In this document: positions 5,876-9,914 of the stretch, one piece after another
Layout of the letters: each line of letters begins with the position of its first letter
Numbering within the stretch: the first letter of the stretch is position 1
Source: a virus
Lineage: Duplodnaviria; Heunggongvirae; Uroviricota; Caudoviricetes
Virus record (IMG/VR): IMGVR_UViG_2711768054_000002
Strand: one strand, 5' to 3'
DNA length: 31,683 bases
The notes under the pieces: generated by a model
What the model was told of the DNA's origin: nothing
Seen by the model: only the letters and a program-made list of their open reading frames with translations
Databases searched by the model: none
Translations under genes and position numbers: made by a program

Positions 5876-5958
5876 ACTGATGGCATCATGATACATTAAC
5901 AAATCTGAAGCAATGCTTTAGTAGTCGTGCATTAATAACTTATAAGGAATTATTATCG

Positions 5959-7281
5959 ATGAGTGCGTTAAGGGATGAAGTATCTATGAAGGTTGCGTTC
6001 TCTAATGGCATGATAAACAAATTATGCAAAAGTTTTTTTTATAGTCATGGTAAGGAGCAGCCTTGTATTCAAGTCGGTAAAGCATTAGAAGATTTTGCTT
6101 TTTGGCTTGCATATAATGATGAGGAGATTGCAAAATGTGCTAGTAGGTTATTAAAAGCATATGGCCCCCAATTAGGTATAAGTGACCTTCACAATGCGAA
6201 AAGATTATTGTTAGGTTTTTGTTCTGAAGCCTTCAATCGCATTGATGCTGATTTTCTGTCGCTTAATCCTGATAAGATTTGTGTTGATGATATTATAACG
6301 CAAGTTCATAGAAAAAATCTTAGTGAGATGTTTAAGTATTATATACTTTCACGAATAAAATCCTGTCCGTATATTTATAATCTTGGGTGTGCTGGCTTTG
6401 ATGGGAAGCTTGAGCTTAGAGAAAATTTATTTTTATATGGCCCGGGGCTAGGGGTGGAATTACTTTCTGATATTAAAGACAAAACTGACATCAAGGTTCC
6501 TGTTGATTTTTATGATGATGAATATATGCGGCATAAACCAATTGGGAAATATTTTCGACAGTCAAAATCCTGCTTGGTGGTGGCATATGCTTCATCAGAG
6601 GATAAAGCGGTGAAAATGTTTGATAGTTTGTTTGGAGCTTTATGTCTTGCGGTTGATAATCCTTTTGCGATTAATCGAGTTGCTGTTAATAATCTAGTTG
6701 AGTCTTTTGGTGTCGGGAAATATCATGAAAGTGAGTTTCGGGTGAATATTCCGTCTGTATATAATTTAAATATAACGGATTCAGCCTTGGCGATACTTAC
6801 AAAAATACTTTCATCACCTGATAAAAGGATGTTGTCTGCTCTTTCCTTTATAGCGCACGGGTGGAGGGATGACAAACGTGAAAGGTTTTTGAATCAATTT
6901 ATAGCATTGGATGCTATGTATGGAACCAATAATGGTAATAAAAATTCAATTATTGGCGGTGTTTGCAGAGATGCGGCGAAAATTATTGATATTGATTCAA
7001 AAATAGGAATAATCTATGAGCTTAGGTGTAAGTTTGTTCATGGAGATATTTCATCGTTATCTGATAATGATAGCTATCGAAAGTTTATTGATAGCTATGG
7101 CGTGGACCCTATTGTTTCTCTTTTTGAAATTCTTAAAGAATGCGTCCTTAATTATAATGGTACTTACAAAACGCCAAAAGATGTTGGAAAGGCAGATAGG
7201 TCTATTTGCGTTCCTGCTGAGTTGCTTCCAGCGGTTGAGAGGATGATAGCGGAATACAGTGGAGTTAAAAAAACAAACTAA
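5959..7281 (+). CDS. Hypothetical 440-aa cargo protein in the A-Q variable region; R-x4-H (HEPN-like) motif
   Basis: Clean ATG with AAGGA SD; visibly AT-rich relative to flanking phage genes; occupies the P2 tin/old position; motif ELRCKFVHGD at residues 355-364 (nt 7021-7050); no Walker A motif, so not Old-like. Confidence 0.75.
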   Translation: MSALRDEVSMKVAFSNGMINKLCKSFFYSHGKEQPCIQVGKALEDFAFWLAYNDEEIAKCASRLLKAYGPQLGISDLHNAKRLLLGFCSEAFNRIDADFLSLNPDKICVDDIITQVHRKNLSEMFKYYILSRIKSCPYIYNLGCAGFDGKLELRENLFLYGPGLGVELLSDIKDKTDIKVPVDFYDDEYMRHKPIGKYFRQSKSCLVVAYASSEDKAVKMFDSLFGALCLAVDNPFAINRVAVNNLVESFGVGKYHESEFRVNIPSVYNLNITDSALAILTKILSSPDKRMLSALSFIAHGWRDDKRERFLNQFIALDAMYGTNNGNKNSIIGGVCRDAAKIIDIDSKIGIIYELRCKFVHGDISSLSDNDSYRKFIDSYGVDPIVSLFEILKECVLNYNGTYKTPKDVGKADRSICVPAELLPAVERMIAEYSGVKKTN

Positions 7282-7422
7282 AGATGTTCTTTTTAGCCTC
7301 GCCTGCATTAGGTGCATAAATTTGCATTCATTTTCAAATATATCTTTTGACAGCGAGCACCAGAACAGGCGCTTGCCGGGGGGATGATGCACCTGCATTA
7401 AAACCGCCCCATGAAGCGGGCG

Positions 7423-7441
7423 GGCGAGGCGGGGAAAGCAC
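7423..7441. other. cos cohesive-end site
   Basis: Exact GGCGAGGCGGGGAAAGCAC, the P2 19-nt cohesive end as I recall it, in the expected position between the A side and Q. Confidence 0.85.
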
Positions 7442-7685
7442 TGCGCGCAATTGTTCATTTTGTCATATATGTAATTTGATTTGAGTAACTATCCGCATAT
7501 TGTTAACCAAGTGTATAACTGCGATAAAAATGTGTCTATTAGGTTGTATTGACTTGATTTAATATAAGAGAATGGTTAGATTCGTACACGTGGCATTTGG
7601 TTGTGCAATCGTGTTGTTGCACGCTAAATAATAACCTTGTGTTCTTTTTATTTAATTTGCTGGTTAAGTTTTTATAGGAAATAAA

Positions 7686-8687: not shown

Positions 8688-8850
8688 CTGGAGTTGGCCA
8701 CATTTTATGTGGCCAACGTAACGGCGTGGTAGTGACAGTTTTTTTGCGTCTGAGCGCGTCGTGATGGCATTTAGTCGGCCTGCCGGGGCGTTGGTGTGTC
8801 TGCGGGGTGTTTTGTGCGGTGGTGAGCGTGTGAGGCCGTGATGACGGGTT

Positions 8851-8874
8851 GTAAAAAAGCCGCCCGCAGGCGGC
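8851..8874 (-). terminator. Rho-independent terminator downstream of Q
   Basis: GCCGCC-CGCA-GGCGGC hairpin (8859-8874) followed on the minus strand by a U6 tract (complement of AAAAAA 8853-8858), just past the Q stop. Confidence 0.7.
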
Positions 8875-8879
8875 GATGT

Positions 8880-9914
8880 TCAGCCGTTGTCAGTGTCCAG
8901 TGAGTAGTTTTTAAAGCGGATGACCTCCTGACCGAGCCAGCCGTTTATCTCGCGGATCCTGTCCTGTAGCGGAATAAGCTCATTGCGGACAAAGACCTTT
9001 GCCACTTTCTCAATATCACCCAGCGACCCGACGTTCTCCGGCTTGCCGCCCATCAACTGAAAGGGGATGCGGTGCGCATCCAGCAGGTCAGCGGCGCTGG
9101 CTTTTTTGATATTAAAAAAATCGTCCTTCGTTGCCACTTCACTGAGCGGGATAATTTTAATGCCGTCGGCTTTCCCCTGTGGGGCATAGAGAAACAGATT
9201 TTTAAAGTTGTTGCGGCCTTTCGACTTAACCATGTTTTCGCGAAGCATTTCGATATCGTTGCGATCCTGCACGGCATCGGTGACGTACATGATGTATCCA
9301 GCATGTGCGCCGTTTTCGTAATACTTGCGGCGGAACAGCGTGGCCGATTCATTCAGCCAGGCAGAGTTAAGGGCGCTGAGATATTCCGGCAGGCCGTACA
9401 GCTCCTGATTAATATCCGGCTCCAGCAGGTGAAACACGGAGCCGGGCGCGAAAGGTGTCGGCTCGTTGAAGGACGGCACCCACCAGTAAACATCCTCCTC
9501 AACACCACGGCGGGTATATTTTGCCGGTGAGGTTTCCAGTCTGATGACCTTACCGGTGGTGCTGTAGCGCTTTTCCAGAAACGCATTACCGAACACCAGA
9601 AAATCCAGCACAAAGCGGCTGAAATCCTGCTGGGAAAGCCACGGATGCGGGATAAATGTCGAGGCCAGAATATTGCGTTTAACGTAAATCGGTGAGCTGT
9701 GATGCACGGTAGCACGCAGGCTTTTTGCCAGACCGGTAAAGCTGATTGGTGGCTCATACCATCTGCCGTTACTGATGCATTCGACGTAATCCAGAATGTC
9801 ACGGCGGTCGAGTACCGGCACCGGCTCACCAAAGGTGAATGCCTCCATTTTCGGGGCGCTGGCGGTCATTTTTTTTGCCGCAGGTTGCGGTGTTTTCCCT
9901 TTTTTCTTGCTCAT
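8880..9914 (-). CDS. Q: Portal protein Q
   Basis: 344 aa, matching P2 gpQ in length and position; start overlaps the P stop. Confidence 0.93.
   Translation of the reverse strand: MSKKKGKTPQPAAKKMTASAPKMEAFTFGEPVPVLDRRDILDYVECISNGRWYEPPISFTGLAKSLRATVHHSSPIYVKRNILASTFIPHPWLSQQDFSRFVLDFLVFGNAFLEKRYSTTGKVIRLETSPAKYTRRGVEEDVYWWVPSFNEPTPFAPGSVFHLLEPDINQELYGLPEYLSALNSAWLNESATLFRRKYYENGAHAGYIMYVTDAVQDRNDIEMLRENMVKSKGRNNFKNLFLYAPQGKADGIKIIPLSEVATKDDFFNIKKASAADLLDAHRIPFQLMGGKPENVGSLGDIEKVAKVFVRNELIPLQDRIREINGWLGQEVIRFKNYSLDTDNG

Follow-up and report, generated by a model that had tools for sequence, protein, structure and literature searches.

A candidate abortive-infection ribonuclease with a C-terminal HEPN domain in the A–cos cargo slot of an Escherichia coli P2-like prophage

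Introduction

Among prophage-borne systems of abortive infection, partnerless HEPN nucleases such as ApeA, DARNA, HepS and Tha are increasingly recognised as a major class, and for each of them the key question is the nature of its switch. ApeA (Gao et al. 2020; Juozapaitis et al. 2026, preprint, 10.64898/2026.01.26.701840) forms a decameric or dodecameric ring with a deoxydinucleotide-binding pocket and cleaves tRNA anticodons, and mutation of R502 of Ec2ApeA by its authors abolished defence (10.64898/2026.01.26.701840). DARNA (PD-T7-3) is a 456-amino-acid, single-protein abortive HEPN anticodon nuclease with a large, trigger-sensing non-catalytic domain (10.64898/2026.02.22.705581), and HepS, from the Gifsy-1 prophage of Salmonella, is off by default, cleaves tRNA anticodon loops when triggered by a phage component and works in the old position of P2 (PMC13043305). 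Here, we describe a gene for a 440-amino-acid protein in a 31,683-nucleotide stretch of viral DNA (IMG/VR record IMGVR_UViG_2711768054_000002; hereafter the window), which is the sole gene between replication gene A and the cos core of a P2-like prophage segment (Table 1), where P2 carries tin and old.

The DNA is 99.9–100% identical to that of Escherichia coli X14-3 (NZ_CP084055), with 100% identity for the cargo gene, whose RefSeq product there is WP_053264581, 'HEPN domain-containing protein'. In their survey of P2 A–Q loci, Rousset et al. 2022 (PMC9122126) listed this protein and its ST131 variant WP_032190067 as single-gene 'HEPN_Apea' (Table S5), with domain labels derived from HHpred and HH-suite. 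An initial annotation of the window, made from the sequence alone, had proposed an effector of an uncharacterised family; the family indeed has no Pfam, NCBIfam or PADLOC model, whereas the HEPN call was already public in RefSeq and in the 2022 hotspot catalogue, and the protein is to that extent less novel than supposed. Single-protein HEPN defences in prophage hotspots are themselves an already well-described kind. New here are strong evidence for the active site, the definition of an unmodelled superfamily that joins an N-terminal domain (NTD) to HEPN, and the explicit exclusion of the protein from the ApeA, DARNA, HepS and HepT families.

The HEPN domain and its active site

Residue conservation and a predicted structure lead us to regard the C-terminal ~130 residues as a HEPN domain that looks competent for catalysis, and we hold with high confidence that it is of the active type. 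The initial annotation had pointed to a HEPN-like R-x4-H motif within ELRCKFVHGD, which begins at residue 354 and contains the sole R-x(4-6)-H of the protein (R356 and H361). Because 62% of composition-preserving shuffles of the protein contain R-x(4-6)-H, the motif by itself is within chance and its significance is carried only by conservation and fold.

In the close family (26 clusters, all from Gammaproteobacteria), R356 was invariant and 17 of 18 sequences had H361. When 1.84 billion cluster representatives were searched by profile (cut-off E ≤ 1e-3), 234 relatives were recovered, most of them 400–450 amino acids long and similar mainly in the C-terminal domain, and 136 of the 141 distant matches carried R-x4-[HY]-G at the equivalent place, typically as RNxLLHG. 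Across an alignment of 110 sequences (A2; 13–20% identity to the query), R356 and H361 were the sole invariant columns (each 110/110), alongside near-invariant G362 and P384 (each 109/110), G322 (104/110) and A319 (99/110), and the position of D318 was acidic throughout (D in 109, E in one). When a word-indexed protein database was re-searched with the 110-sequence profile, essentially the same close family was returned, with no Pfam labels. One close homolog, P0026 (392 amino acids), ends early and has tyrosine in place of the predicted catalytic histidine (RCKFVYGE); judged by its sequence, it may be an inactivated or decaying copy.

In the AlphaFold2 (AF2) model, the domain folds as a four-helix up-down bundle and can be superposed on solved HEPN domains, with the HepT-type toxin–antitoxin (TA) toxins 8xdj, 7ae2 and 5yep as best structural matches; other HEPN comparison proteins were TTHA0636, HI0074 and TT1696, together with Csm6, the HEPN domain of AbiA, sacsin HEPN and AF0298. 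R356 lies in the last turn of helix 345–360, H361 is the first residue of the loop that follows and D318 lies in helix 306–321, an arrangement that agrees with the helix and active-site criteria of Anantharaman 2013. Invariance in 110 of 110 sequences and the modelled fold together bear out the HEPN reading of the motif. Every computational test proposed with the initial annotation supports its interpretation; the relatives found by profile keep the motif, and Pfam itself returned nothing for the protein. A non-catalytic domain with a ligand-binding or scaffolding role, as in nucleotidyltransferase-associated HEPN domains, appears extremely improbable, since non-catalytic HEPN domains typically lose Rx4-6H (Anantharaman 2013) and here its two defining residues are the only ones invariant across the 110 sequences.

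Curated models matched the 110 superfamily members sporadically and below threshold (RiboL-PSP in two, Apea in one with E = 0.018, and AbiU2 in one), and no curated HEPN-clan sequence model matched the protein, although the HHpred analysis of Rousset et al. did give HEPN_Apea. Comparison of the profile with PDB sequences gave no meaningful match.

Comparison with described systems

The window protein resembles ApeA in being a single-gene product with a C-terminal HEPN domain behind non-catalytic N-terminal regions, in occurring as P2-prophage cargo, and in sharing a helix-2 motif, [WF]IA[LI][ED], and R-x4-H that are collinear in profile–profile comparison. For reference, Ec1ApeA (601 amino acids; named ApeA by RefSeq) and Ec2ApeA (583 amino acids) were recovered from E. 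coli genomes, the latter as P2-prophage cargo in the slot between tail gene S and baseplate gene V. With hhalign and a 62-sequence ApeA profile, residues 210–339 of the window protein aligned to Ec2ApeA 259–393 (20% probability, E = 1e-3), placing FIALDAMYG on WIAIESLIP (the helix-2 block on 'NLWIAIESLIP' of ApeA), and residues 326–415 aligned to Ec2ApeA 475–552 (4% probability, E = 0.01), placing R356 and H361 on R502 and H507; nothing aligned for residues 1–209. More direct comparisons gave E = 0.57 (BLASTP against Ec2ApeA) and ~1% probability (profile against single ApeA sequences). The curated ApeA models (NCBIfam 'HEPN family anti-phage protein ApeA' and PADLOC ApeA) did not match the protein, and PADLOC ApeA matched none of the 110 superfamily members. 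The ApeA proteins are also longer (583–601 amino acids, with family matches at ~540–630 and mostly ~585) and largely helical, comprising N-terminal, Mid and split-HEPN domains as well as large insertions (10.64898/2026.01.26.701840), whereas the window protein joins an α/β N-terminal region to a compact HEPN domain that lacks the ~80-residue H2–H3 insertion. Membership of the ApeA family was rejected on the lack of a curated match and of full-length homology and on the different size and architecture. By these sequence comparisons, the HEPN domain appears remotely Apea-like, in agreement with the label of Rousset et al., in a protein that lies outside the ApeA family.

HepS is similarly a prophage-encoded, partnerless HEPN protein. 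It differs from the window protein in being HEPN-only, with R100 and H105 and a family restricted to ≤250 amino acids (PMC13043305), whereas the window protein has an extra N-terminal region of ~270 residues, and no sequence relationship between the two was detected. DARNA is of similar size, but its domain order is reversed, with HEPN at residues 1–159 and an all-helical, Pds5-like C-terminal domain (10.64898/2026.02.22.705581). Identity with DARNA or HepS was rejected on architecture, the window HEPN domain being C-terminal to a 270-residue α/β region. The PADLOC search gave no match bearing on DARNA; its library presumably includes a PD-T7-3 model.

The closest structural matches belong to HepT toxins, minimal HEPN proteins of ~130–140 amino acids (~130–150 as the class was defined here) that are always paired with an MNT antitoxin. 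Identity with HepT–MNT was rejected on the length of 440 amino acids and the lack of an MNT gene in the window or in eight homolog contexts. More broadly, the protein could be a toxin in a TA or addiction module that serves to maintain the prophage; the antitoxin, as yet unrecognised, would be a small open reading frame (ORF), an RNA or the N-terminal domain in cis, and any anti-phage effect would be secondary. HEPN toxins are common in TA systems, their structures match best, and small ORFs overlap the 3' end of the gene (for example, 7259..7387). This explanation is nevertheless very unlikely in our judgement: no MNT or other conserved partner recurs in the eight contexts; a search of the locus found no RNA antitoxin and no tandem-repeat array for a ToxI- or AbiF-like RNA; the gene is flanked by A and cos, conserved parts of P2 that do not belong to the cargo; and the protein, three times as large as HepT toxins, has a conserved extra domain.

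Finally, Old and Tin occupy the same slot as AT-rich cargo, and in P2 the phage-exclusion role is theirs. Old is an ABC-ATPase with a TOPRIM nuclease, whereas the window protein has a HEPN fold and, as the initial annotation had noted, no Walker A motif ([AG]xxxxGK[ST] does not occur in its 440 residues). With no Pfam match to an ATPase or TOPRIM domain either, an OLD-family nuclease was rejected.

The N-terminal region and the superfamily

The N-terminal region is mixed α/β with nine strands in the AF2 model, and its ~270 residues gave no convincing Pfam or PDB fold match. Its profile aligned to the N-terminal regions of 79 distant relatives (94% probability, E = 1e-7, 233 columns), so that the two-domain architecture is ancestral to the superfamily rather than a clade-specific add-on. 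Pairwise identity was lower in this region than in the HEPN domain, both within the close family (51% versus 69%) and across the superfamily (16% versus 30%), and such faster evolution fits a sensor or regulatory role, although it is no proof of one. A sequence scan found no hydrophobic segments in the protein. Beyond the HEPN domain comes a disordered linker (residues 402–414), with a predicted local distance difference test (pLDDT) score below 50. The helix behind it, at 420–439, is less conserved than any other part of the protein; most close homologs have it, and several do without it.

We raise tentatively a broader, joint reading, doubtful as a whole, in which the window protein would be the E. 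coli representative of a hitherto undefined, compact NTD–HEPN superfamily (at least 234 clusters at 50% identity, median ~427 amino acids) that is a remote sister group of ApeA and whose α/β NTD is a new type of infection sensor. Under it, the trigger would differ from the deoxydinucleotides of ApeA, the SSB-presented single-stranded DNA of DARNA and the tail-tip protein of HepS. The superfamily, which sets a different and unmodelled N-terminal domain on the same catalytic module, has no Pfam, NCBIfam or PADLOC model and is therefore probably missed by current defence-annotation pipelines; a profile from the 110-sequence alignment would let annotation tools detect it.

Distribution and genomic context

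The gene behaves as cargo of the P2 A–Q hotspot, with a position between gpA and cos/gpQ, an entry in Table S5 of Rousset et al., an atypical base composition and variable presence among otherwise conserved prophages. At 0.357, its G+C content lies below that of A (0.531), of Q (0.526) and of the window as a whole (0.515), and the conserved flanks were matched in 2,157 genomes, whereas only 46 carry the gene. The initial claim that one AT-rich gene fills the variable space between A and cos holds. At ≥99% identity, the same gene occurs in 46 of 5,426 complete E. coli genomes (0.85%), always on the chromosome and including ST131. This carriage, which extends to clinical ST131 isolates, could affect susceptibility to phage therapy. 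The gene has a full-length match to PHROG 23812, whose function is unannotated, and occurred in none of 50,697 deposited phage genomes.

Homologs move alone between prophage cargo slots and defence islands, and no neighbour is conserved across their contexts. The Enterobacter homolog also sits alone in the A–Q slot, and that of Serratia quinivorans (L010:6001-7218) sits in the S–V slot of a P2-like prophage, on the opposite strand. Elsewhere, a Vibrio homolog adjoins CBASS (SAVED and a DncV-like nucleotidyltransferase), HEPN-RES, an HNH nuclease and a group II intron; a Pseudoalteromonas homolog lies in an element bounded by an integrase, together with a replicase, a DEAD/ResIII helicase and a Schlafen/AlbA_2 gene; and the Shewanella and Idiomarina homologs are isolated, one of them beside IS21 copies.

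These contexts bear on whether the enzyme might instead serve the prophage itself, through RNA processing in the lytic cycle, interference with P4-type satellites or an effect on host physiology or virulence (for example, in ST131). The gene follows A directly on the strand of this early gene, with no clear promoter of its own; P2 hotspots also hold partition systems and cytolethal distending toxin (PMC9122126); and clinical ST131 isolates carry the gene. We nonetheless regard such a role as quite improbable. Homologs occur outside phages, beside CBASS, HEPN-RES and HNH genes, and in non-P2 mobile elements; the use of two different P2 cargo slots, one opposite to the tail-gene strand, argues against integration into the P2 transcription programme; and the lack of the gene from every deposited phage genome searched indicates that it is dispensable for P2-like phages.

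Two further observations concern these neighbourhoods. Ec2ApeA (L017:2501-4252, E. coli JNQH497), whose defence role has been validated by experiment, lies in the same S–V slot as the Serratia homolog, likewise on the opposite strand, which suggests that this slot is a further anti-phage hotspot exchanging HEPN cargo with the A–Q slot. In three Vibrio-type contexts (L003:7079-10521, L004:7042-10484 and L005:349-3791), the homolog has the same 222-amino-acid protein upstream and a 374-amino-acid HNH_5 protein downstream, followed in two of the three by a 198-amino-acid tyrosine recombinase (another lies 3' of the Pseudoalteromonas homolog, L006); this arrangement may represent either a small mobile cassette or a system of several genes specific to the clade.

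Proposed mechanism

On balance, and with moderate confidence, we favour a model in which the protein is a single-protein, phage-triggered abortive-infection RNase carried as prophage cargo. Its C-terminal HEPN domain would be a metal-independent endoribonuclease with R356, H361 and D318 in the active site, presumably completed by HEPN–HEPN dimerisation as in other HEPN enzymes. The N-terminal region most likely holds the nuclease off in uninfected lysogens and would release it when infection is sensed through a phage protein or a small molecule. The active enzyme would most probably cut host tRNA anticodon loops (less probably mRNA or phage RNA), a target that is likely by analogy with ApeA, DARNA and HepS, and the resulting stop in translation would block the superinfecting phage at the cell's cost. 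Alternatively, an active HEPN RNase could confer direct immunity by cutting phage RNA, whether transcripts or RNA genomes, and leave the host alive. This is unlikely: the characterised stand-alone HEPN defences closest in logic (ApeA, DARNA and HepS) are all abortive anticodon nucleases, and the sequence offers no hint of a module specific for phage RNA.

Several points weigh against the abortive-infection model. The scan found no convincing promoter for the gene, and its expression in lysogens is therefore presumptive. Neither Pfam nor NCBIfam matched the protein at E ≤ 1, or any of 17 close relatives at E ≤ 10, and PADLOC matched neither the protein nor its 17 close homologs. The residue after the arginine, expected to be N, D or H, is C or S in the window protein and its close relatives (across the superfamily, S in 35, N in 32, C in 21 and A in 11). 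The contexts of distant members are mostly short, uninformative metagenomic contigs. As to prior expectation, a quarter of P2 hotspots hold non-defence cargo such as partition systems (PMC9122126); three of the eight additional P2 systems cloned by Rousset et al. protected against an eight-phage panel (PMC9122126); and a machine-learning survey in a 2026 preprint scored 15–32% of P2 proteins of unknown function as antiviral. Neither WP_053264581 nor WP_032190067 is mentioned in the text of the literature searched. By comparison, six of eight P4 loci of unknown function were protective in that same 2026 preprint.

In the tables of Rousset et al. covered here, WP_053264581 is not among the P2 systems that were cloned (PMC9122126). 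The cloned 'Putative HEPN' pFR103 of strain S88 was considered as a possible equivalent and rejected, being a different protein from which no phenotype data transfer.

Locus layout and second cargo gene

Table 1. Positions of the cargo gene, its parts and its neighbours, counted from the first nucleotide of the window.
Feature	Position	Strand	Basis or remark
Replication gene A of P2-like prophage segment	3566..5875	+	
A-to-cargo intergenic spacer, 83 nt	5876..5958	+	TAAGGA Shine-Dalgarno-like sequence ~10 nt before ATG
Cargo gene	5959..7281	+	ORF call; ATG start; 440 amino acids; soluble two-domain protein
N-terminal α/β region, residues ~1-270	5959..6768	+	Putative sensor or regulatory domain
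C-terminal HEPN domain, residues ~274-400	6778..7158	+	
Conserved helix-2 block H300-G322 (HGW..RERFLNQFIALDAMYG), contains acidic D318	6856..6924	+	Conservation, model, ApeA alignment
Predicted catalytic motif R356-x4-H361 (RCKFVH, then G362)	7024..7041	+	Conservation, model, ApeA alignment
C-terminal amphipathic helix, residues 420-439	7216..7275	+	AF2 model; after low-confidence linker
P2/P4 cos core GGCGAGGCGGGGAAAGCAC	7423..7441	.	Exact match; right boundary of A-cos cargo slot
Second AT-rich ORF, 333 amino acids	7686..8687	+	Between cos and Q
Portal gene Q	8880..9914	-	

The cargo gene has two candidate start codons nine codons apart, M1 (nucleotide 5959) and M10 (nucleotide 5986), and in many homologs the protein begins at the residue matching M10 (MKV[AS]F...). 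Citrobacter and Enterobacter conserve the nine codons ahead of M10, but these codons also contain an AGGGA Shine-Dalgarno-like sequence that would serve a start at M10. A consensus scan of the spacer upstream of the gene found no sigma-70-like promoter at ≥9 of 12 consensus positions, and the scan overall returned nothing above background (13 sites found versus 11.7 expected); transcription from a promoter of its own and read-through from A would both be compatible with this result. The string GGCGAGGCGGGGAAAGCAC also occurs in the P4 cos-adjacent clones of Rousset et al. (Table S2), and a G+C-rich hairpin at 7404-7423 (-) abuts the cos core.

Several unrelated complete E. coli chromosomes (among NZ_CP084055, NZ_AP045787, NZ_CP087564, NZ_CP124517, NZ_CP124420 and NZ_AP040168, in which the query maps at record position 2093 or 2352) were deposited with coordinate 1 exactly at the A start of this prophage. 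This suggests that a tool used to rotate assemblies took the P2 replication endonuclease to mark the start of the chromosome.

Beyond cos lies a second AT-rich gene (G+C content 0.33; flanks 7442-7685 and 8688-8879), which the initial annotation did not mention; it is outside the A-to-cos space and inside the A–Q hotspot of the literature, between cos and the terminator of Q, where the packaged genome would have its left end. Its 333-amino-acid product (WP_053285577) has three C-terminal hydrophobic segments (~213–236, 249–272 and 307–330), belongs to no Pfam, NCBIfam, PADLOC or PHROG family and had no match in the 50,697 phage genomes. The gene occurs in 10 of the 5,426 E. coli genomes, with different A-side cargo (for example, an AAA ATPase), and it was rejected as a partner of the 440-amino-acid gene, with which it co-occurs in one of 5,426 genomes and apart from which it has other pairings. 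Given these varied combinations, the A–Q hotspot seems to consist of two sub-slots, separated by cos, that exchange their cargo independently. Directly downstream of the Q stop codon is a strong terminator-like hairpin, GCCGCCTGCGGGCGGC, followed by a T-run (8859-8874, -), and insertion of the 333-amino-acid gene has thus left the terminator of Q intact.

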